From assembly GCF_018350175.1 (NCBI RefSeq), contig NC_058368.1, positions 86,864,001 to 86,928,000 on the forward strand: 64,000 bases of DNA, written 5' to 3'. Source of the stretch: Felis catus. Its lineage: Eukaryota. The notes under the pieces are model-generated. The model had not been told where the DNA came from, made no database searches, and worked only from the letters and a program-made list of their open reading frames with translations. Shown here piece by piece: positions 21,267 through 64,000 of the stretch. The translations under genes were made by a program, and so were the position numbers. The stretch's first letter is position 1; every line of letters starts with the position of its first letter.

Positions 21267-22425
21267 GAAAAGGAAAGATGGTGGCAGAGTACGAGGACCC
21301 TAGCTCCCTCAGCCCACAAATACAACCAAATAACTATCAGATCATACTAAATACCTCAGAAATTGACCTGCAGACTGGCAGAAAAAATTCCATAACTAAA
21401 GGTAGAGAACAGGCTACACTGAAGGCTGACATGTGGTTTGGGAAAGATACAGATCTTGGCTGCTGTGTTGGGGAGGGAACCCCAGTCTCTGAGACAGGTC
21501 AGAAACAGACTAACACACAGGAGAGTTGCAAGGAGAAAATGAATTCCTATAGCAATTGGCTTGCAGAGCAATAGTCACTGAATTTTGTGGTTTTGCAGCC
21601 AGCAGGCTTAAAGCCTCTAGTTCTAAATATCAGTCTGCTTGGCTTGGGTAGAGCCTGGAGGCATTGGGGCTGCTCAGGCAGAGAAGGTAAGGCAAACAAC
21701 CCAAGGACATACCACAGGGAAACAGTGATCTGAAGAGTGTCCAGGACACACAGTGGGGAGATTAATTGCTCATGTCAGAGCCTGTTGCAGAGAGGCAGCA
21801 TTCATGGAGAAAACACTCTAAGAACAGAGGAACCAGCAGGCACCATTTCTCTTCCCCACTCCTCAACATAAACACAAGGCAAACTGTAGAAACCAATTCA
21901 GCCAATAACACTCTCTACCTAATTTGCTTACTAAAAGCCCTGCACCCCTGTTCTCTGGTGGAACCCCATTCTCAGTCATGTTTGCCTCAGTCCCAACTCA
22001 GCAGATCCCCTCTTACAGAAGACAAGCCCAAACTCTTGTCCACACTGTCTCCTGACCCAGCAGTTTTGCAGGGCCTGAATCCTGCAATGGTAGCAACAGA
22101 TCTCATTTCACAAGCTGAGCAGAGCACGCCTATCTAAAACTCACAATATTCAGCACAGAGACAAAACACTACCCACAATACAAAAAGAGCCAGTGTAAAT
22201 GACTGGCCTAAAGGATAAAGCAGATAGCACAAAACAGAAAGTGGACGAAGAGGAGACTCTTCCTGAAGCCCCAGGTTTTTGGGGATAAGGCATACTACAC
22301 TGCAGAGCACTACAGGACCTTTGCTTCATAGAGCCATTACCTTCAAAAACAGGAAACTTGGCTGACTTGGTTAATCCTGACACTTAGACAAAATGAGAAA
22401 ACAGAGAAATTTGTCCAAAACAAAA
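21267..22425 (+). mobile_element. older carnivore L1 5' UTR and ORF1 start
   Basis: AAGATGGTGGCAGAGTACGAGGACCC 5' motif; homologous to the 5' UTRs at 39215-39676 (-) and 56905 (+); ORF1 start ATGAGAAAACAGAGAAAT near 22392. Confidence 0.8.
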
Positions 22426-26100: not shown

Positions 26101-28398
26101 TACCCTTATGTGTCTACACTTGTACATTAAGGTCAGTTTAGCCTTGGCTGCTTTCAGAATTCTCTCTTTATCTTTGTATTTTGCCAGTTCCACGATTATA
26201 TATCATGCAGAAGATCGATTCAAATTCGTCTGAAGGGAGTTCTCTGTGCCTCCTTGATTTCAATGTCTGTTTCCTTCCCCATATTGGGGACGTTCTCAGA
26301 TATGGTTTGTTCAAGCACACTTTTGGTCCCTTTCTCTCTCTTCTTCTACTTCTTAAATTCCTGTGATACGGATATGGTTCCATTTCATTGAGTCACTTAG
26401 TTCTCTAATTCTCCCCTCCTGACCCAGAATTTTTTTTTAATCTCTCTTTTTCTCTGTTTCATTTTTTTCCCATAATTTTATGTTCTATTTCACCTATTCT
26501 CCCCTCTGCCTCTTCATTCTGGCTGTCACCACTTCTAGTTTATTTTGTACCTTATTTACAACATTTTTAAATTCATCATGACTATGTTTTAGTTCCTTGA
26601 TCTCTGTGCCAATAGCTTCTCTGTTATCTTCTATCTTTTCTCAAGTCCAGAAATTAATATTATGAATATTATATTAAATTCTTGTTCAGTTATATCGTTT
26701 ATATTTGTTTTGAGCAATTCTTTAGCTGTCATTTATTCCTGGAATTTATTTCGAGGGGAATTCTTCTGTTTCATCATTTTGGCTAGGTTTCTGTCCCTTA
26801 TGTGTTTTAAAAGCTTTTTATGTGTCCTGCACCTGCGAGCACTACTATAGTAAAGACGGGTCATACACCATCAGGCCTGGCCCTTTAGGAGGTGTTTTTT
26901 GGAAAGTGTTACTCTCTCTCTGTTGTTGTGACTTTGGTTACTTTATCTCCCTACTCATAGTGATGTTTGAACCCTCTACTAGGTGCTCCTTGATTTGTTC
27001 CTTGAAGTAGTCATGGAAAGGAAAACAAGAAGAAAACAAAACAGAAACAGAAAACAAAAACGCTCCAACACAAATAAACATAAGCAAATAAAATAATAAC
27101 AAAAACAGAAACACCAGCTACAAGTAAACAACAGGGTGAAGACAGTGCTGATAGAAGAGGCCTTATCCCAAACAAAGAGAGACATGACAGAGACAAGGAA
27201 AAGGAAGAATGAAAATTGAGCAGAACAACCATATGGCTTAATCCAGAGAGAGAAAAGGAAAATAAAGAAGGAAGCGAGGAAAAATAAAAATAAAATAAAG
27301 TTATCCAAACAGAGAAACTATAAGGCTTAATCCAGAGAGAGAGAGAAAAGAGAATAAAGAAGGAGGTGTGGAACATGTATCAAGAGAATGGATTAAATAT
27401 GTCTGCTTAAACAAACCAACAACCAGAGTAATCAGACTAGAGGAGGGAAGAGATAAGAAGGAGAAAAGGAAGGAAGAATATATCTATATAATAACTGTCC
27501 AAAAATTAAATCAGGCAATGCAACAGTGCTGGTCTGGAGGAGGGGCTGTCTGATTCATCAGCATCAATCCCGCTCCAGTAGATGTGCAGTTACCAGGCGC
27601 AGAGGGGCATTGTTTGTTGTAGACAGGTCCCACCTCCACTGTGGGCCCTGCTGTCCATTCGCTGAAGTCTCCCTCTTGTTGGTGATGGGGAGAAAATGGT
27701 GACACCCCAGTCTCTCCTCCATCGACCAGGTGTCCAAACCACTTTGAGCCATCCTTACTGTACCATGGACACAAATGAGGCAGTTTGTCCCACTCCGCTG
27801 GCTCCCTTGCCCTGGCACTTGGCTGGAATTCAAATTCCCACTCCATAAGCCCCAGTACTGGGGAAGCACCGCTCCATGTTGACCAATATGTGGTTCCTGT
27901 TGTCCCCAGCTTGTGGGCACAGGCATGCTTTGTCCTGTCCCACAGAGCTCCAGGGAGGAGATCACTTTCTTCTACTGTGGACTGTACCCCTGACATAGCC
28001 ACGGAGCTTGGGGCTGGCTCCTGTCCTCCACAGGTGCACAATCAGAGCAGCTGTCCCCAGTCCAGAGAAAGCCCCTCAGTTAGAGATTGGATCTTTCTCC
28101 TTCCTAGTCCATGTTTTTTCTCTTGTCCAGATACGGTGTTATGCTTCCCAGCTGCTCTTTCTCTTCCCTTTGTCTCTCTGAAGAGGGGATCCCTCCCTCC
28201 CCTCCATTCATTTTACCTCTCCCAGTTCACAGTTCCACACCTATGACCCCCTCAGGTTGTCCTGGTGGATCTCTGGAAGGGAGACTGTCTCTTTTCCTCC
28301 CAGACTCTCGGAGTTCAAAGTCCTTTAGCTTCAACACTTCTTTATTTGTGAGACAAGGGAACTTGGGATTCCCCTACTTCTCCACCATGTTCTCCACT
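23181..28398 (-). mobile_element. LINE-1 (5' UTR, ORF1, ORF2 through RT), 3'-truncated
   Basis: Minus-strand ORF fragments [35 protein letters not shown]1 near 25900-26780; long 5' UTR starting GAACATGGTGGAGAAGTAGG. Confidence 0.95.
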
Positions 28399-32302: not shown

Positions 32303-35300
32303 TGGTGGTGTGTCAGAATATGGTGGTGTAGGAGGTTAATTGGGTCCACCTCGTCCTACTGGACACTTAGATTCCACCCACATCTGCCTAAATAACCCAG
32401 AAATCCACCAGAAGACTAGCAAAATGGACTCTCGAGAGCCAAGCTTAGACAAGAGGCCCACAGAAGAGGGTAGGAAGGGCGGAGAGGCAGAGTGTGCTAC
32501 ACGAACTGGCAGGAGGGAGCTGGGCCCTGGAGGGACAGCCCTCTGGGAAAGGCAGATTCCCCCAAGTCTGGCTTGCAAGTGGAGGAGATGGATTCTGTGA
32601 GTTCTGACAGCCAGCGAAACATAACATCTGGAATGTTAAAAGTCAACAGCTCTACTCTCGGAAAGTTGGGAAGGTGAGATGACACTGGGAGGGAGAGTTG
32701 TTGAGCCCCAGAAGGACAGAGCTCCACTGGGGAACAACAGTGCTGGGAAGCACCATCTCCCTTTCCCATCTGCCAGCTGAATTTCCAAAGGGCACTAGTT
32801 CCCATCACTGAACTTGCTTCCACTGTGCAAACGCCCAATGCCGTGCTTCTGTGGATCCATCCCTCCTACCAGACTGCCTCCCTCCAGGTGCTGCAGAGCC
32901 ACTCCCACAGGGGACCACCAACAACCAAGTGAGCTAAGGCTGCCCCTCCCATCACTGTGCACCTTGGGGACCCACCCTGGCTAATAAGCCCTTGGCCACA
33001 TCCCATCAAAACAGCACCACAAGCCGGGCAGTGTGCAAGCAGCCCAGACAGGGGACACACAACTCCATAGTGAGTCCTACCCTGAGAGATGTGAAGATAA
33101 GTTACACACCAGTTTGACTGTTGCCACAGCAGTGGGTTGGGGGAAGACACTGGGACTGACTGTGGCCCTGCCACCAACACATATTTCTCTGGAAAGCACA
33201 GGGAAAGTGTCCTGCAGTTTGGAGCTACCACAGAGATTGGCCAAAATGATGAAATGGAAGAATTCCCCCAAAAGAAACCGCAGGAAGTGGTCACAGGTAA
33301 TGAAGTAGTCAAACCAATTTAAGCAATATAAAAGAACAAGAATTTAGAATAATAGTCATAAAATTAATCATGGGGCTTGAAAAAAGCATAGAAGACAGCA
33401 GAGAATCTATTGCTACAGAGATCATGGGACTAAAAATTAGTCACAACGAACTAAAAAATTGCTATAAATGAAGTGCAATATAATCTATAAAGAGCTCACC
33501 AAACTCCACACCCGAAAAACAAATAACCCAGTGAAGAAATGGGCAGAAAACATGAATAGACACTTTTCTAAAGAAGACATCTGGATGGCCAACAGGCACA
33601 TGAAAAGATGTTCAGCGTCGCTCCTTATCAGGGAAATACAAATCAAAACCACACTCAGATATCACCTCACGCCAGTCAGAGTGGCCAAAATGAACAAATC
33701 AGGAGACTATAGATGCTGGAGAGGATGTGGAGAAACGGGAACCCTCTTGCACTGTTGGTGGGAATGCAAATTGGTGCAGCTGCTCTGGAAAGCAGTGTGG
33801 AGGTTCCTCAGAAAATTAAAAATAGACCTACCCTATGACCCAGCAATAGCACTGCTAGGAATTTATCCAAGGAATACAGGAGTACTGATGCATAGGGCCA
33901 CTTGTACCCCAATGTTCATAGCAGCACTCTCAACAATAGCCAAATTATGGAAAGAGCCTAAATGTCCATCAACTGATGAATGGATAAAGAAATTGTGGTT
34001 TATATACACAATGGAATATTACGTGGCAATGAGAAAAAATGAAATATGGCCTTTTGTAGCAACGTGGATGGAACTGGAGAGTGTGATGCTAAGTGAAATA
34101 AGCCATACAGAGAAAGACAGATACCATATGGTTTCACTCTTATGTGGATCCTGAGAAACTTAACAGGAACCCATGGGGGAGGGGAAGGAAAAAAAAAACA
34201 GGTTAGAGTGGGAGAGAGCCAAAGCATAAGAGACTGTTAAAAACTGAGAACAAACTGAGGGTTGATGGGGAGTGGGAGGGAGGAGAAGGTGGGTGATGGG
34301 TATTGAGGAGGGCACCTTTTGGGATGAGCACTGGGTGTGGTATGGAAACCAATTTGTCAATAAATTTCATATATAAAAAAAATAAAAAAATATATATGAA
34401 AAAAAAATTAAAAAAAATAAAATGGAGACGGCCATATCACGGAATAAAGAGGCAGAAGAAAGAATAGGTGAATTAGAAGATAAAATTATGGAAAAGAAGG
34501 AAGGTGAGAAAAAGAGAGATAAAAAAATTCAGGAGTATGAGGGGAGAAATAGACAACTAAGTGATGCAATCAAACAGAACAATATCCATATCATAGGAAT
34601 TACAGAAGAAGAGAGAGAGAAAGGGGCTGAAGGTATACTTGAACAAATCATACCTGAGAACTTTCCTGACCTGGACAAGGAAACAGGCACATAAATCCAA
34701 GAGGCACAGAGAGCTTGCTTCAGACATAATGTGAATCAACCTTCTGCACGACACATCATAGTGAAACTGGCAAAATACAAGGATAAAGAGAAAATTTTGA
34801 AAGCAGCTAGGGATAAACAGCCTCTAACTTACATAGGTAGACACCTAAGGGTAGTAGCAGACCTATCTACTGAAACTTGGTAGGCCACAAAGGAATGTCA
34901 GGAAATCTTCAAAGTGATGAACAGAAAAAATATGCAGCTGAGAAAACTTTATCCAGCAGGTCTGTCATTCAGACTACAAGGAGAGATAAAGGTTTTCCCA
35001 AACAAACAAAAACTGAAGGAATTCATCACCACTAAACACGCCCTACAAGGGATTCTAAGGGGGACTCTGTGAGTGAAATGTTGCAAGGACCACAAAGTAC
35101 CAGAGACATCACTACAAGCATGACACTTACAGACATCACAGTCACTCTGAACCTGTATCTTTCAATAATAACACTGAATGTAAATGAACTAAATGCTCCA
35201 ACCAAAAGACATAGGGTATCAGAATGGATTAAAAAAAAAAAAAAAAACAACAGAAGACCCATCTATTTGCTTTCTACAAGAGACTCATGTTAGACCTGAG

Positions 35301-41829: not shown

Positions 41830-43000
41830 ATTGAATGTCCAGACAGGACAACTAAAGCGAAAAAGGGTGCAATCTGATGTGTCTCAAAGCTCTACATGAA
41901 GAGAGAACCTTGGCATTTCAGCTGTATTTGAAGCAAGGTCCAGGCTGGGAGGTCTTAGCACTTTCCATGCAGTGGACACCCTGTCAGGACAGCCAAAACT
42001 GAAGGGATACAGACCAGGTTTCCCAGGGTTCTATACATTGAGGGAGCCCTGTCAGAATAGCTGAAGCTGAAGTGATTGTAACCCAGGGTGTCCTGGAGTG
42101 TTCCATGCCAGGGGAGCCCTGGTAGATGGGCTGGAGTTGAGGCAGTGTGCAGGCTAGGAAGTCCTTTGGCTCTCTTTGCACAGGGTGGCCTGGCAGTATA
42201 GCTGAAATTAACATGATTGCCATCTGAGGTCTCCAAGCTTCTATGCACTTAGGACACTTTGGCAAGATAGCTGAAGCTGAAGTCAATGTAAACTGAGGTA
42301 TTCTGGGACTTTCCACACAGATGGTGCCGTGGAGGGGTTGCTGGAGTTGAGACGGGGTACAGGATGGGGTGTACTTAGGTACCATGGCAAGATAGCTAAA
42401 TGTAAAGTGGATGTGGGTCATTGTGGTCCTTGGGTTCTCTGTGCAAAATGTGCCTGTCAGTAAACTGAAGCTGAAGTGGTTGCAATATGGGTATCTTGGT
42501 GGGGAGGGGTCTCCACATTGAGGGTGCCTTGTCAAGACAGCTAAAGTTGAAATGGGTACAAGCTGGGCTGCACTGGTGTCCTCAGTGCAGGTGGTGCCCT
42601 GGTTCAGCAATTAGAGCTAAAGACAGTGCAGGTGGGAGCTTACCAGGGTGCTCTGTGTGAGGGCAACCCTAGTGGGATGGCTGGAACTAATACAGTCATG
42701 GGCTGGGTCTTCCTGGGGTAATCCATACAGGGACACCTTGGCAACATGGCCCAGTATAAAGCAGACATTAGCCAGCAGGTGCCACAGTGATCCACACATG
42801 AGATGCCCTAGCAAGCTATCTGAAGCCTAAGTTGTGTTAGCCTGGTGCTAACACACTAGTGCTTTGCACTAGTTCACCTTGGCATGAAGTTTGGAGCTGT
42901 AGTGAGCACTCCCCAAGTGTGTCTCAGTGTGTACCACCCTGTGGCCATCTTGATGGGATGTCTGGAACTATTATAAGCTAGTGGCCTGGGGCTCACTGAG
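41830..43000. repeat. degenerate tandem array of about 70-bp period (about 15-17 units) within the L1 5' UTR
   Basis: Core motif like CCCTGGCAGGATAGCTGAAGCTGAAGTG recurs near 41989, 42057, 42127, 42198, 42267, 42338, 42392, 42462, 42537, 42607, 42677, 42746, 42816, 42889 and 42958. Confidence 0.85.
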
Positions 43001-54107: not shown

Positions 54108-55031
54108 ATGAATAACAGCATTGTAACTGAGTTTATGATTCTGGGACTTACCCAAAATCCTGAACTGCAGGGAGTTCTCTTCATTGTCTTTCTCTGCATC
54201 TACCTTGTGGCCTTTTTTGGCAATGGCCTAATTATCATTGTTATAATCTATAATACCACCTTGCATACGCCCATGTATGTGTTCCTCCTGGCACTAGCTA
54301 TTGTGGATATCATCTGTACAACAAGCATTATACCAAAGATGCTGGGGACCATGCTAACATCAGGAAAGAGTATTTCATATGGAAGCTGCATGTCCCAGCT
54401 CTTCTTCTTCACGTGGTCATTGGGGGCTGAGATGGTACTCTTCACCACAATGGCCTATGACCGTTATGTGGCCATCTGTTTTCCTCTTCGCTACAGCACT
54501 ATTATGAACCACCATATGTGTGTGGCCTTGCTTAGCATTGCCATGGTTATTGCAGTAACCAATTCCTGGGTACACACAGGTCTCATCCTGAACCTGACTT
54601 TCTGTGGGCCAAATAACATTGACCACTTCTTCTGTGAGATACCCCCACTGCTCTCTTTGTCCTGCAGTCCTGTGAGAATTAATGAGGTGATGGTATATGT
54701 TGCTGATATTTCCCTGGCCATAGGTGACTTCAGCCTCACCTGCCTGTCTTATGGTTTTATCATTGCTGCCATTCTCCGCATCCGCACAGCAGAAGGCAAG
54801 AGGAAGGCTTTTTCAACATGTTCATCCCACCTCATAGTTGTGTCCCTTTACTACTGCCCTGTAATCTACACATATATCCGCCCTGCTTCCAGCTACTCAT
54901 TTGAAAGGGACAAGGTGATAGCTGCACTATATACTCTTGTGACCCCAACATTAAACCCAATTGTGTATAGTTTACGAAACAAGGAGATGCAGACAGGGAT
55001 TCAGAAAGTCTTTGCATTTTTGAAACATTAG
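54108..55031 (+). CDS. OR13G1: olfactory receptor 13G1 orthologue, 307 aa, intact single-exon CDS
   Basis: ATG at 54108, TAG at 55029-55031. OR motifs LHTPMY, MAYDRYVAIC, HFFCEIPPLL, KAFSTCSSHL, PTLNPIVYSLRN. Stretches FTWSLGAEMVLFTT, CSPVRINEVMVYVAD and the C-terminal KVFAFLKH match human OR13G1 as recalled. Confidence 0.93.
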   Translation: MNNSIVTEFMILGLTQNPELQGVLFIVFLCIYLVAFFGNGLIIIVIIYNTTLHTPMYVFLLALAIVDIICTTSIIPKMLGTMLTSGKSISYGSCMSQLFFFTWSLGAEMVLFTTMAYDRYVAICFPLRYSTIMNHHMCVALLSIAMVIAVTNSWVHTGLILNLTFCGPNNIDHFFCEIPPLLSLSCSPVRINEVMVYVADISLAIGDFSLTCLSYGFIIAAILRIRTAEGKRKAFSTCSSHLIVVSLYYCPVIYTYIRPASSYSFERDKVIAALYTLVTPTLNPIVYSLRNKEMQTGIQKVFAFLKH

Positions 55032-56904: not shown

Positions 56905-57586
56905 AGGAAGATGGCAGAGCCTTCAGATCATTTTCTGGGTAATTTACTCTTGCCTTCTCCTATAGATACAACTAGATAACACTTACAGTGTAAATAATGC
57001 AGAAAATGATCTGAAGACTGACAGAACAAACTCCACAGCTAACAGTGGAAAAGACACCACATTAAAGAGGGTAGGAAAGGAGGAGGCATGGAGGGGAATT
57101 AAAAGGGTCCTGTCCATCTGTGGCGGGGAGGGAAACAGGGGCATGGAGAAAGGCAAAGAACAGACCATAAGACCAAGGAACCGACTGGGAGAAGACAAAG
57201 TCCCATAATATTTGGCTTTGAAAGTGAGAGGGGCCAAATTTCCTGACTTCTTACAACCAGCTTGGCTTAAAGCCTGGAATTTTAAGTATCAGTGGACTTG
57301 GCTTCTTAAAGAGAGCAATAGGAAGCTGAAACTCCACCCTTAAAGAGACAGCACAAAAAACAGCCCATGGAAACAGCATAGAAGCTATGGGGCGTATGAG
57401 AGGGAGAATTATTTACTCTTTTCAGAGTGTATACCAGAGAGGCAGTGATACACCTAAAATGTGGGAGAGGGTGGAGAGAAGTAAAGAATGATTTCGTGCT
57501 TCAGCAACCATCAACTTAATATAGGCTGCTACCTACAGAAGATGTTATATACGAACTAAATGGTAACCACAAATCAAAAACAATAA
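56905..57586 (+). mobile_element. older L1: 5' UTR joined to the inter-ORF region; host of the provirus
   Basis: AGGAAGATGGCAGAG start, 5' UTR homologous to 21267, then inter-ORF sequence AATGGTAACCACAAATCAAAAACAATAA. Confidence 0.75.
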
Positions 57587-58075
57587 TGTGGGAAATCAAA
57601 TAGCTACATCCTGGTTTAGGAGATTATAGGGAATACAATGCAAAACAGAACACTGTTTTCTGGCCTTGCTGCAAACAGCAGGCAATGTGTCGCTTATCCA
57701 GTTAATGTATATCTAGGGGGCACTCACTTTTCTTACCTGGCTAGTGTATATCTAGGGGTTACGTCCTGCTTGTGATCATAAATCCCTTAGACCATAGACA
57801 GGTCTAAGACCTGTCTAAAGATCTTAGAAAGAATAAAATATTATCCTGTCTTAACTTGTTTTTCTCACATTTTGTATACATTCTTACTGGCACACAGCCC
57901 ACTTATGTATTGCACATTGTTTCCCTAAATGTATGCTTAATAAATATGGGACCCTGAGAACAGCTTGGGGAGATTCCCTTTAGCCTCCCTCGCACCTCTT
58001 GACTTGCATGGAGTCTTGAGTAATCTTTTCCACCATCCTTGGCTTTGCTGGACAAAGCCAAAAGCCAAACCCACA
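57587..58075 (+). mobile_element. 5' LTR of a betaretrovirus-like (class II/ERVK-type) provirus, 489 bp
   Basis: Termini TGTGGG...CCCACA, AATAAA near 57939, followed by a PBS and gag; a second copy lies at 63801-64000 (-). Confidence 0.88.
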
Positions 58076-58077
58076 AC

Positions 58078-58097
58078 TGGTGGCCCCAATGTGATAG
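58078..58097 (+). promoter_or_regulatory. degenerate primer-binding site, tRNA-Lys type
   Basis: TGGTGGCCCCAATGTG 2 nt after the LTR end, compared with the Lys1,2 PBS TGGCGCCCAACGTG (CpG decay plus small insertions). Confidence 0.65.
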
Positions 58098-58381
58098 CAA
58101 TAGCTTTGAGGGGAAGACTTTCAGGCAGCAGAATCCACACATTCAAGGAGAAGAAAGTGAAACTGTCCAGACTTCAAACAGACCTCATCTTGGTAAGGGA
58201 CAGCAATACTCACGATGCAAATATTGCGCAAGTCTATCATTCAGAATTTGAGAGGCAAAGACTTTCTCAGACAATCAAAAACTAAAGGAGCCCATGACCA
58301 CTGAACCAGTACTAAAAGAAACAGTGGGGATAGCTACCAACCCATCTAGTTTTCAGAGTATTGCTTTTCTCTTTCTTTACC

Positions 58382-59177
58382 GTGGGCCAAAAATGACAGG
58401 GAAACAGTTATTATACTTAAAAATTTTACAGCAGCTTTTAAGGTGGCCAATTTTACTGTTACAAAAGATAAATTAAGTAAATTGTTATGAACAATACAAA
58501 ACATCTGCCCCTGGTTCCCCGAACATGGTACAGTTGATTTAGATCTATGGGAACAAGTGAGAAGAAATTTAAAAGAAAAACATGAAAAAGGAGCGAAGGT
58601 TCCTGCTTCCATTTTAGTGACCTGGAGTTTAGTCCATATGACATTATGTCCATTACATGTAACTGCAGAGAAGAAAAAATTCAGAAAGAAAGCCTAACAC
58701 CCACCTCTCCTATGGCACCTCCTATAGTGGAGGATGACTCCCCTTTGTCACCTCCTCCTGTCCCTATTCCTCCTGATCGCTTAAAGCCAATACCTATATC
58801 GGAGGGACATAAGCCTTCAGTTATGCAGAAATGTTTACGAGAAGGATATGCTGCTGGGGAGTTTCATACATTCTCCATCATTACCACTGCTGGACATCAA
58901 CCTAGGCATGTGTCCCTCCCTTTCACTGTCTTTTAGGAATTGAAGTGAAATGTTGCTGAGAAGAGTATCCAAAGCTGCTTTACTAAGGGCATAATTGAAG
59001 CAATAGGATGTGGATATGAAATTAACTCTTGGGATTGAAAGACATTAACAAAAACCATACTTTTCCCTCTTCAGCATGCTGTATGGACTTTAGAAATCAA
59101 GAGGGTTGCACCACACAGCCAATGCATAATCAAGATTTGGGTATTCCGATAGGAGTAGAAATACTACAGGGATTTCA
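58382..59177 (+). pseudogene. gag: betaretroviral gag remnant (MA, late-domain region, N-terminal CA)
   Basis: GTG GGC CAA AAA (mutated MGQK start); CPWFPEHGTVDLDLWEQV at 58506 (cf. HERV-K CPWFPEQGTLDLKDW); PMAPP; SVMQKCLREG; LPFTVF*ELK; FTKGIIEAIG; WD*KTLTKTILSP. Frameshifts and stops. Confidence 0.88.
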
Positions 59178-62045
59178 GTTTTGTGTTTTTGTTTTTGTTT
59201 TTGTTTTTGTTTTTGTTTTTGTTTTTGTTTTTCATCTGCACTCTGAGCCAGTGCAAACTTAATGAATACTTTCTCTTTTCTTCTTTTACTCTTATTTCAG
59301 GGAGCTTTTGAGGAGTATGGTCTTATTGGAACACTTTCATGTCAATTGTTCAGGCTGCAATCCTCTAGCCCATGGCGACTCTATTTGGAGGAGAAGACCT
59401 GCCTTTTGGATGGAAGTTAGTACCTTGGCCAGCCTGGTAATAAGACTCAGAAAGTTGACGCCCTGTCTTTATTCCTGTCCTTATACAAAGTTGTCTTTCT
59501 TGGGCATGGGACAGCACTCTAAGTGAGTAGCGCAGCTGCCAATATTAAGACTCTCATGTAAGGTTCCCTCCTCATATGTTTAACATGATCCCTTTCACAT
59601 CTCTAGTTGGCCCACTTCTGGCCACAGGACCTCCACTGGAAGCTGGCTGAAACCAGCACCTGGTTCAATTAAAAACCCAACCTAACTTTCCAACCTAGGA
59701 AGTTGGCTGTAAAGACTCCATGTGTCTCCATGTGTAGGAATGTCACTTAGATCATGATGGATTTCTAGCTTTACTGTTTTCTAACAATGTCCTCTACCAA
59801 CTACCTAAATTACAAAATTGGGTAACACCCCTTTGTAAAACTTTTCCAGTGTTTTCCATAGGTTAAAAACAGTAGTCAGTAGTTTCTTCTCTGCCTTCTT
59901 TTAACTTTTTTTTATTAGTTTTCTTTATTTTTGAGAGGCAGAGAGAGACAGAGTGTGAGTGGGGGAGGGGCAGAGAGAGGGAGACACAGAATCTGAAGCA
60001 GGTTCCAGGCTTTAAGCTGTCAGCACAGAGCCCGATGCAGGGCCCAAACTCAAGAACCATGAGATCATGACCTGAGCTGAAGTCGGATGCTCAACCAACT
60101 GAGCCACCCAGACACCCCTCTTCTCTGCCTTCTTAGCAAGGTCTCTCTCTAGGAGGACCATAGGAACTTCTCTTTAGTCCCCAAAGAGTCTCCCTTGGGA
60201 TGCCTTTTTAACTGACTGGAAACAATTTGTATTACAAAATTTAGGAAAGAACTAATCTCCTATAAAACTGAATGGCTACAGTAGGATCTATCAGTTAGAT
60301 CTCTTCTGCAGGAAACAGGGCAAATCGATGGAGGTACCGTAGTTCCAGGCCTTCACAGCTCCAAATCAGGACCCAGACCTAAGGGCCTCTTGCAGAATAT
60401 GTTTGCCCAAATGTATTTGCCTACTAAACTCCCATATTGGATGTCTAAATAAGCCTCCCCCAAATAAATCCAGGTTGCTGGAGGAAACACAGGACATCCC
60501 TAACAACGGGGATGCTGGCTGTTTCTCTCTGTTCTTCCTTCTAATAAATGTGAGAGCTTCTCCCACATTCATTTTCCGGGTTAATGGCTATGATAATTAG
60601 AGCCAACTGTGGTTACTTTACCTCCAACAGGGACTTTAAGGAATATTCCCAAGCAGCTGATAAAACTCCATTTGTTTCAGAGAAATTCGCTGCCTTCTCC
60701 AGCCTGACATGGACTGCCTAATTCCACTAGCTGGGAAACAAAACAAAGCAAACACCTGGCATCTGCTCCTCTGTCTGAGCTGACAAGGTTTAGAACCAGA
60801 AATCCTTTTTCTCTGCACCCTGGGCTTTTATCTGCTTCCAGGCCTCTTGACAGAACCTCACCTCTTCAGTTTCCCCCAACCTGCACAGTTTCTGCACCAC
60901 CTGGGGTGCAGCCTTTGTAACTGACCCCTCAGTGCCTCAGGCACTATTGACTCCTTCTCTAGTCCTCAATGTCAAGGAGCAAAGAGCACCCCCTTGGACT
61001 ACCTACTTCAGATTTTCCCACCTCTGTTTCAGGTAAAAACTGACAATGGGGAACAAATTGTCTTTTAAGTGGACACATTAGAATGTATTTGATATTTAAG
61101 CTAATTTGTTAGTTTGAGATTTACCTGTTTATCAGTATTAAATAAAATATGTTTTATTCTATCTAGGTTTGCTAAAGGTCAAATAAGTTCATGTTATTTC
61201 TATTGCAATTTGCAAAAAGATGACTTAGATTAATAGTTATTCTGTCTCAAAGTTTCACAAGTAATTAAGATAGATTTCAAATTCTTTGGTAACCTAAAAT
61301 TTTAAAGTTTTGTTTGTATGATAAATGGGATTGAGTTCATTGGACATCTAGGTCTTTTCTAAATAGAACGGAATTCTTAAAAAATTGATTACTGATATCT
61401 TATTGCAGAGAACTAATGCTATGTGGGTTTGTTGGTAAACATGCTTTGTGCTTCATTGATAAATTTTCCATCTTAAAAAGATTCTGGTGTAACAGTTCTC
61501 AACTAATTACCTAGTTTTCATTGGAGACTAAGGTTTCTAAGAGTTAAAATTCTGCTAAATGTAATTAAGGCTAATGTTAATAGAGAAAGGAACTCTGTAG
61601 GTAGGAAAGTAGGAGATATGTAAGGAAGATATAAGGAATGGAAACACACTTTTACTGAAGGTAAAATAAAGTAATATTGTCCTAAATGAGACTGGTTGTT
61701 TGGAGAGAAGTGGCTTGGGTCAAAATTTGAATGCAAAGGAAAATTGTAGAAGGTTCATGAAGGGAAATCTTTGGGAAGGAATTTTTATGTGTGTTTAGGA
61801 TGGACTAAGGTTGAAATGAATGGATTTTAAAAAGTACACTGGAATAAGGTTAAAATTCTGCTTTTCTCTCTGTTCAAAAGACAACATTTTCTTGGACTGT
61901 TGTTCTGCTCTTGACAAAAAATAATATGCAAAGGTCTTCTCTCTTTTGTCTGCTGGGAAAACCAAAGCTTATGTTTTCTCTTTTTCAGATCTTTGATTAC
62001 GTAGTTAAAACTTTTTTTAACGTTTAAGGAGCTAAGTTTTGCTAA
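59178..62045 (+). mobile_element. class I ERV-derived internal sequence replacing the middle of the class II provirus
   Basis: (TTTTTG)n at the left junction; class I gag MA remnants ESPLGCL..WKQF and QLDLFCRKQGKSMEVP*FQAF (60186-60360); then a long AT-rich non-coding internal-type tract. Confidence 0.65.
59901..60118 (-). mobile_element. CAN-SINE (feliform type)
   Basis: Perfect TSD TCTTCTCTGCCTTCTT at 59885-59900 and 60119-60134. Confidence 0.96.
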
Positions 62046-62048
62046 CAG

Positions 62049-62650
62049 CCATATAACCCTACCAAACAAGCTATTAGAATGTACGCATGCCACTTTAAGA
62101 CAAATGCTTCGTGGGACGCCTGGGTAGCTCAGTCAGTTAAGCGTCCAACTTCAGCTCAGGTCACCATCTCGCAGTCCATGAGCTCGAGCCCAACGTCGGG
62201 CTCTTGGCTGATGGCTCAGGGCCTGGAGCCTGCTTCCGATGCTGTGTCTCCCTCTCTCTCTGCCCCTCCCCCATTCATGCTCTGTCTCTCTCTGTCTCAA
62301 AACTAAATAAACATTAAAATTTTTTTAAATAAAAAAAAAGACAAATGCTTCGCAAACAAAAAAAGGGGAACCTACATAATGCCTCCCCTTGGAATTCACT
62401 ATTTAAAGACTTATACACTCTAAATTGTTTAAATTGTGATTCTCATAACTTGATAGATGCCAATCAGCATTTCGTGCCATCCCCTGTCTCAAATATCACA
62501 GCCAAGGTGCTACTTAAACACGTACAAGGTGATCATTCATGGAAAGGACCTTATGAACTGATAACATGGGGATGGGGATATGCATGTGTTCTTGTCCCAT
62601 CAGGATTGTACTGGGTTCCTGACTGTCTGATTAAACCATACCATGAGTTG
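62049..62650 (+). pseudogene. pol: betaretroviral integrase C-terminal remnant, interrupted by a SINE
   Basis: PYNPTKQAI..E.THATLRQMLRKQKKG, LYTLNCLN, WKGPYELITWGWGYACV...WVP...IKPY (class II WGRGYAC-type motif). Confidence 0.88.
62112..62337 (+). mobile_element. cat-type CAN-SINE
   Basis: Perfect TSD AAGACAAATGCTTCG at 62097-62111 and 62338-62352. Confidence 0.96.
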
Positions 62651-62681
62651 GAAGGATCAACCCTTCAACCTTCTTCCTCAG

Positions 62682-62729
62682 ATGGCCAATTTCTCCTTAC
62701 AAGACAACAGGGGAAACATTAAACACACA

Positions 62730-62779
<50 letters not shown>

Positions 62780-63060
62780 AGGACAGTGGGGGAGACCATG
62801 TCCCTGGACAACTAAGGCAAATGACATCATCTGGGGACAACTTAAGAAACTCAATCGACATGCACCAAAGTCATGTGCCATACCCAAGCACCACCCACCC
62901 CAGAAAACAGGTTTTTAGTATATTTAGCTGTGGTTTCCCAAATCTCGGCTAAGGTAACGATTTGCTTAATCTTTTTCTTTGTCCAGACCACTACTGTTTT
63001 TTCATCACTGTATTAGGCTCATATCATAGACTCCCCTTTCTTTAAGCCAGTTAAAATAAC
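62682..63060 (+). pseudogene. env: betaretroviral env leader/signal peptide and start of SU
   Basis: ATG at 62682; IIWGQLKKL (W at 62832); hydrophobic FLVYLAVVSQISAKVTICLIFFFV; Y*AHIIDSPFFKPV at 63011 (cf. class II SU YWAY.P.PP); (CA)n expansion at 62724-62776. Confidence 0.8.
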
Positions 63061-63084
63061 ACTTGATGACCCATACTATCTTTC

Positions 63085-63292
63085 TGGTTTGTTTTTTTTT
63101 TCAATAAATGAAATTTATTGTCAAATTAGTTTCCATACAACACCCAGTGCTCATCCCAAAAGGTGCCCTCTTCAATACTCATCACCCACCCTCCCCTCCC
63201 TCCCACCCCCCATCAACCCTCAGTATGTTCTCAGTTTTTAAGAGTCTCTTATGATTTGGCTCTCTCCCACTCTAACCTCTTTTTTTTCCCTT
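63085..63292 (-). mobile_element. cat-type L1 3' end, broken at an inversion breakpoint
   Basis: T tail followed by AAATTTATTGTCAAATTAGTTTCCATACAACACCCAGTGCTCATCCC, antisense to the L1 3' ends at about 34330 and 39150. Confidence 0.9.
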
Positions 63293-63351
63293 CTCTCTCT
63301 GCCGCTAACCCACTCGCATTGTGTGTCTGTGTCTCTCAAAAAAATATATAA

Positions 63352-63382
<31 letters not shown>

Positions 63383-63385
63383 ATA
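63293..63385 (+). mobile_element. 3' half of a CAN-SINE with (TAAA)n tail; 5' half missing
   Basis: CTCTCTCTGCCGCT...TGTCTCTCAAAAAA(TAAA)n with no tRNA-derived head. Confidence 0.75.
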
Positions 63386-63509
63386 TTGCTACCCTGGCTT
63401 TCTTTTGACATTCATTTGCATGATAAATGTTTATTCATGCCCTTACTTTCAATCTGGATGTGTCTCTAGGTCTGAAATGAGTATCATCTGGGCATCACAT
63501 AGATGAACC

Positions 63510-63554
<45 letters not shown>

Positions 63555-63794
63555 TTTGTGTATGTGTATATACACATAGATACACACTGTGTCATCCTAT
63601 GTCTTTTGATTGGAAAATGTGTCCACTTACACCCAATGTAATTTTTGATATGTATATATTTTCTGCCATTTTCAACTTGTTTTGTGGTTGTTTTTGTAGT
63701 TTTACTCTGATCCTTTTTTTATTTACTCTCTTTCATGATCTGCTAGTTTTATTTAATGATATACTTGGATGTTTTTCTCCTCTTTGCATATCTA
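63386..63794 (-). mobile_element. L1 inter-ORF region and ORF2 start; inverted continuation of the host L1 at 56905-57586; contains (TG)n
   Basis: Minus strand TAGATATGCAAAGAGG...TCCAAGTATATCA continues directly from ...CAAAAACAATAA at 57586; (TG)n at 63511-63565. Confidence 0.8.
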
Positions 63795-63800
63795 TTATTG

Positions 63801-64000
63801 TGCTGGTCTGGCTTTTGGCTTTGGCCAAAAGGATTACTTAAAACTCCATGGAAGTCAAGAGAGGTGAGAGGGAGGCTAAGGGAAGTCTCCTCTAGCTGTT
63901 CTCAAGGCCCCATATTTATTAAGCATACATTTAGGGAAACAATATGTTATACATTACTGGGCTATGTGCCAGTAAGAATGTATAGAAAAATGTGCAGAAA
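63801..64000 (-). mobile_element. 3' LTR (terminal 200 bp) of the same provirus, inverted
   Basis: The reverse complement aligns to about 57860-58075 (shared ATTGTTTCCCTAAATGTATGCTTAATAAATATGGG and others); it ends in CA and is followed by CAATAA, identical to the 6 bp before the 5' LTR. Confidence 0.9.

Follow-up and report, generated by a model that had tools for sequence, protein, structure and literature searches.

The element at positions 57587 to 63060 of the window (the whole 64,000-nt stretch of Felis catus DNA analysed here; features lie on the forward strand unless stated otherwise) appears to be a provirus of mixed descent. Its shell almost certainly belongs to a class II (beta-like) endogenous retrovirus (ERV), as read from the remnants at both ends, and its centre of about 2.8 kb is very probably class I internal sequence and not class II. 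The two LTRs can, with good confidence, be assigned to one provirus whose right part was inverted later. As a whole, we lean slightly towards a layered history in which an HML5/6-like class II provirus with a template-switched class I core received later insertions and was then partly inverted. What is unusual here is this history, with its foreign centre and flipped end; the type of element itself is already known. The provirus encodes nothing usable today, and a single dead locus of this kind has no known effect.

Class II remnants at both ends of the element

The 5′ LTR occupies positions 57587-58075 (489 bp) and has TG...CA ends with the termini TGTGGG and CCCACA, exactly as described in the first-pass annotation; AATAAA is present at 57832 and 57939. 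Its U3 region contains a 23-bp near-perfect palindrome (57793-57817), ahead of which lies a 27-bp direct repeat (57693 and 57732). A solo LTR beside unrelated fragments was ruled out, as a primer binding site (PBS) and gag follow directly after the LTR. The candidate major splice donor proposed earlier is present at 58190-58198, with GGTAAG at 58192; nine copies of this hexamer were counted on the forward strand of the 64 kb, which corresponds to a chance of about 4% of finding one in a 300-bp leader.

The PBS remnant (58078-58095) had been called Lys-like, a reading that turned out to be equivocal. Scored against the motifs in the supplements of PMC4724089, it reached 9 for a Lys type, 7 for the Met type of HML5 and 4 for a second Lys type, and the Lys and Met scores were reached by 4 and 7 of 3000 random 25-mers of the window, respectively. 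The Lys alignment starts 5 nt after the LTR end and the Met alignment 2 nt after it. By these alignments, the primer site appears to fit Met about as well as Lys. The PBS is described as an unstable marker in PMC4724089, and HML5 as Met-primed in PMC3778440.

In the Pfam scan, the gag and pol/env regions were read in three forward frames each and the middle in six (18 readings), which gave three retroviral matches: Gag_p10, the N-terminal part of Gag_p24 and IN_DBD_C. The class II gag MA remnant (58382-58660) matches Gag_p10 at 58431-58643 with an E value of 1.4e-16, in agreement with the MA motif noticed earlier; its expected start has no ATG, and it contains one frame break and one stop. Among PDB chains, it matched HERV-K Gag (8c9m, 666 aa; E 2e-11) and the MA of MPMV (E 6e-7). 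The CA remnants reported at the same time were confirmed for the N-terminal part. This remnant (58907-59170) carries several stops and matches Gag_p24 at 58907-59101 (E 1.3e-5), with weak PDB matches only, to the CA of MPMV and HERV-K (E 0.05-0.6). Its extension beyond the Gag_p24 match to about 59170 was made by eye, and homology to CA past the (GTTTTT)n microsatellite at 59178-59232, near the left junction of the centre, was unsupported in alignments with four CA-bearing relatives.

Between MA and CA, the motif PMAPP (58709-58723) stands in the position of a late domain. Compared by eye, the HML1 and HML6 Gag consensuses of PMC4724089 carry P(S/T)AP after MA at the same place, and a late-domain reading is plausible from this likeness. 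The first-pass annotation had gone further and regarded the motif as a PTAPP altered by CpG decay; the motif and its position agree with that proposal, and the decay itself is conjectural.

From about 62049 onwards, the sequence again resembles class II, beginning with the end of the integrase core (62049-62111), recognised by alignment with relatives. The C-terminal part of the integrase (62345-62719), which holds the longest run without a stop codon (129 codons) in the element, matches IN_DBD_C at 62534-62638 (E 4e-10), so that the integrase motif of the first reading is likewise upheld. Among PDB chains, the best match of this integrase tail was 7usf (E 2.7e-10); the matches to 7usf and 3jca, which we take to be MMTV integrase structures, ranged from 3e-10 to 2e-8, and that to the RSV integrase had an E value of 0.16 or worse. 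The tail is closest to class II, and its named relatives are of the 'group K Pol' type. Further downstream, the env signal peptide and the start of SU (62787-63085) are broken by frameshifts. They match stored proteins that bear both an integrase tail and a HERV-K_REC match, and the env leader noted earlier is supported in this way; the env start alone had no match in Pfam or PDB. A donor-like AGGTAA site at 62952 (62946-62957) lies where the env signal-peptide region ends, as would be expected of a Rec-type splice donor, and a HERV-K_REC match is present in a stored relative.

Protein word-index searches with the class II Gag pieces were negative (0 of 163 and 0 of 7 candidates), which is weak evidence, and Rfam gave no match in 58400-64000. 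The assignment of the shell to class II is made because all protein pieces at both ends of the element match beta-type families or structures. The Pfam and PDB matches of MA, CA and integrase rule out class I or class III for the shell.

A probable class I segment in the centre

The description of the whole element as a class II provirus holds for its two ends, where it is carried by protein matches. About half of 57587-63060 (from about 59170/59300 to 62040) is not class II. A class I-type internal segment in sense orientation extends over 59300-62040, with its left edge at about 59170-59300, and consists of a leader-like part, an MA remnant and an AT-rich tract. The tract (61040-62040, 30% GC) forms the last kilobase of the segment; such AT-rich tracts presumably mark elements of the MER4 group. 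The gamma-type (class I) Gag MA remnant, which has an internal deletion, lies at 60154-60420, and its frame 60202-60417 matches the relative P0157 (E 1.2e-14, 49%; one of four candidates). The gamma-type assignment of this MA comes by way of PF01140, which P0157 carries, direct Pfam and PDB searches having given no class I MA match. The end of this MA resembles, by eye, the HERV-W and HERV30 Gag consensuses printed in PMC4724089. The first-pass annotation had named a best match to class I as a result that would speak against its classification; the shell matches class II, and the centre, with its match to P0157, gives just such a result.

The interval that separates CA from the end of the integrase core lacks the components that a class II provirus has there: the CA C-terminal domain, NC, dUTPase, protease, RT and RNase H. 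No retroviral Pfam match was obtained in six frames of 59250-62200, and no HSP started in 59200-62030 (0 of 28; 24 class II relatives, many of them with RT/RH, dUTPase- and protease-bearing ones included). Two SINEs are inserted in this part of the element: one inside the class I segment (59901-60118, reverse strand, 16-bp target-site duplication, TSD), the other inside the integrase (62112-62337, 15-bp TSD), both found by repeat comparison. The family relative P0002 reads across the site of the latter without a SINE.

In structure, about 2.8 kb of similarly oriented class I sequence take the place of the region that starts with the CA C-terminal domain and extends to the integrase core. The most likely cause would be a template switch, prior to integration, between RNAs packaged together, an origin on which our confidence is evenly balanced. 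The resulting hybrid would have kept its LTRs, primer site and leader but no RT, and so would have been mobile only with a helper. Criteria for re-integrating recombinant ERVs are given in PMC4724089, the second of which asks for the same LTR at both ends, an insert in sense orientation and no third LTR inside. What is seen here is the same LTR at both ends, sense orientation and no LTR pair around the insert, which may still hold a single unrelated LTR. Scans of viral contigs and metagenome contigs did not reveal a second copy of the hybrid, of which one locus is known.

It is somewhat unlikely, but a serious alternative, that a class I element was inserted into a resident class II provirus as a one-off event, after which deletions took its LTRs together with the class II pro-pol. 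PMC4724089 names secondary integration among the causes of mosaics, and the locus is insertion-prone, with two SINEs and one L1 end, as well as rearranged. Moreover, P0002 is unlike the window upstream of about 62050, so at least one copy of the family differs there, which counts against template switching; a test of whether P0002 has the integrase core there in another frame gave no significant result, 10 of 40 shuffles being as good. Such an insertion would, however, require deletions at both ends of the insert, whose edges show neither a repeat or LTR pair nor a TSD, and it would have to have landed in sense orientation, by itself a one-in-two chance. Template switching is the origin that we prefer.

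The probable inverted 3′ LTR and the insertion site

A second LTR, most likely the 3′ LTR, lies inverted at 63801-64000 (reverse strand), where it is cut by the end of the window, and is 86.7% identical to the 5′ LTR over 173 nt. On its own strand, its terminal CA is followed by CAATAA, the hexamer that also stands before the 5′ LTR. The left copy of this hexamer is at 57581-57586, and the right copy at 63795-63800 on the reverse strand. The 6-bp TSD of the first-pass annotation is thus real, its second copy lying beyond 63060, the right limit that had been given for the element. The LTR ends align without a gap under the 6-bp reading; a TSD of 4 bp was ruled out, as it needs a gapped LTR end. 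A 6-bp TSD is typical of class II ERVs and betaretroviruses, and it is what the locus shows, provided that the inverted LTR is the 3′ LTR.

The repeats that flank the provirus we take to be L1, with L1 ORF2-like frames, and the types of SINE and L1 present suit a felid host. To the left of the insertion, a piece of old L1 (57474-57580) matches an L1 copy at 30584-30480 of the window. A second piece, now inverted (63376-63794, reverse strand), continues the L1 cut at 57586 and matches 30477-30263 of the same copy. This one reference copy is therefore collinear across the insertion site, with an overlap of about 6 nt. The old L1 left of the provirus (57000-57586) is patchy, with pieces matching 39382-39216, 21545-21798 and 30584-30480 side by side. 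Because of the shared hexamer and the collinear L1 flanks, both LTRs most likely stem from one integration into an old L1.

A 200-bp L1 3′ end without a TSD (63088-63287, reverse strand, 91.5% identical to 34191-34390) and a SINE tail without a head (63288-63375, repeat family D4 in the window comparison) separate env from the inverted flank and meet in a short T/C-rich overlap. The left inversion breakpoint would coincide with the right edge of the L1 3′ end (63287), and the right one would fall beyond the window end (64000).

It seems improbable to us that the inverted LTR was inserted separately as another member of the family, or that the flip is an assembly misjoin in repeats. Only 200 bp of this LTR are visible in the window, and a junction where an L1 end meets a SINE tail is prone to misjoins. 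The matching hexamer and the L1 that is collinear on both sides argue against a separate insertion. As regards a misjoin, 19 of the 24 listed sequencing runs (seven studies, two organism labels) hold 76-81% of the sampled words, which shows that the pieces exist and leaves their order aside. A single provirus with a later inversion is the more probable reading.

Integration into the old L1 left the 6-bp duplication seen today; under the layered history, the provirus would already have contained the exchanged core. Two SINEs and the L1 3′ end were inserted afterwards. An inversion would then have turned round the remainder of env together with the 3′ LTR and the flank, joining, at a few bases common to both, the L1 piece in env and the SINE of the right flank.

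The divergence between the LTRs (K2P) was 0.13 ± 0.03 over 194 columns, only 200 bp being available for comparison. With the three rates used in PMC4373062, it corresponds to 28 My (16-40), 13 My (7.5-18.5) or 5.4 My (3-7.7), that is, to an age with a fivefold rate uncertainty.

The surroundings of the provirus had been described as an olfactory receptor (OR) cluster. A single intact OR gene (54108-55028, 307 aa, Pfam 7tm_4 E 5e-56) is present, oriented like the 5′ LTR and 2.5 kb upstream of it, and resembles OR13G1. No other OR pieces were found in the 64-kb window, and a cluster inside it was ruled out. Stop-free frames of 155-208 codons occur at 27514-28243 and 41987-42610, with no obvious likeness to L1 or OR by eye.

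Lineage and relation to known elements

Within class II, the lineage is probably nearer to human HML5 and HML6 than to HML2. The points from MA, env and the PBS lean towards HML5/6, and none of them is decisive. Identities over 56 MA residues, counted by hand against the printed consensuses of six of the ten HML groups (HML3, 4, 9 and 10 were left out), were 29 for HML5, 26 for HML6, 24 for HML1, 22 for HML2 and 20 each for HML7 and HML8, with small margins. By eye, the start of env is closer to the HML5 pattern than to those of HML2 and HML4.

For the integrase tail, 169 relatives were found. The tree comprised 117 rows and 107 columns, 40 of the 156 stored proteins having been dropped (under about 69 residues covered). 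The cat locus and four unnamed proteins formed a clade of five rows with a long stem and support of 100/99, in which the closest relatives were 70-75% identical. This clade is tentatively placed inside a group of 36 rows (support 87/90), which also contains snake proteins and rows judged HML5-like by eye from the start of env; no row of the tree was identified as HML2 or MMTV. The fox protein P0176 (cluster of P0011) also has a class II integrase tail and belongs to the same group of 36 rows, in a different clade. Related class II lineages may exist in canids. For the dog, 28 beta-like elements are reported in PMC3093408.

An ordinary Lys-primed provirus of the HML2/MMTV kind that underwent simple decay is very improbable: its best PDB matches are HERV-K Gag (666 aa) and an MMTV-type integrase, and the Lys-type PBS score is slightly higher, but no chain named HML5 or HML6 occurs among the PDB matches, whose ranking cannot weigh these groups, the MA and env patterns are nearer to HML5/6, the Lys alignment has the wider gap after the LTR, and the centre is class I.

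The locus had also been proposed to represent a poorly described class II lineage. Four class II families of the cat, FcERV-beta1 to beta4 (PMC4133949), and three felid class II clades (PMC4373062) are already in print, so this view is only partly right; the locus may belong to one of them, all of which are defined on pro-pol/RT. Among the literature titles searched, none dealt with a class II/class I hybrid from a carnivore or with a cat lineage of the HML5/6 kind, which is weak evidence of novelty, as most subscription journals were outside the search. It is doubtful, though conceivable, that the locus is a copy of an undescribed feliform family of cross-class hybrids with an HML5/6-like shell and a HERV-W-group-like core, spread by a helper. 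If so, a second such hybrid would have arisen independently of the human HML1/HERV-W one, beta- and gamma-type genomes would have been packaged together in a carnivore germ line, and an HML5/6-related lineage would have crossed between primates and carnivores. Where the oldest HML groups came from is an open question, to which an HML5/6-like lineage in cats is relevant. With its 3′ LTR flipped, the locus would escape searches that rely on RT or on a direct pair of LTRs; felid class II counts may therefore be low.

With the betaretrovirus genus (MMTV, MPMV), the locus shares a Gag_p10-type MA, a Gag_p24-type CA, an IN_DBD_C tail and a 6-bp TSD; the dUTPase, zinc knuckles, frameshift sites, RT and TM of betaretroviruses cannot be seen in it. 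With HML5 and HML6 (HERVK22/LTR22 and the LTR3 group; PMC4724089, PMC3778440), it has 29/56 and 26/56 residues of the MA core in common, as well as the pattern of the env signal peptide and SU start, and, with HML6, a short MA-CA region with a P(S/T)AP-type motif. It differs from both in its host order, in its replaced centre and in forming a long-stemmed clade of its own, not nested among the HML5-like rows.

Like FcERV-beta1-4, RV-domestic cat/RV-cougar and the PyEM13001 clade, the locus is class II and found in cats, and the range of 2.3-41.7 My reported for cat ERVs (PMC4133949) covers its age. Those felid families were defined on pro-pol fragments, which the locus does not have, and the available sections of PMC4133949 and PMC4373062 mention no hybrid structure such as is present here.

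Cross-class mosaics are given as 'a small number' among 3173 human chains in PMC4724089. The nearest parallel is offered by the HML1 (HERV-K14)/HERV-W hybrids, seven HML1 proviruses in which, according to PMC3778440 (citing Flockerzi 2005), gag-pro-pol was replaced by HERV-W sequence and the product re-integrated. They are known from several copies with different flanks, which indicates re-integration, whereas the cat hybrid is known from one locus, and, unlike them, its insert consists only of leader, MA remnant and non-coding sequence, with no pol. In both, a class II shell encloses class I sequence in place of gag-pro-pol.
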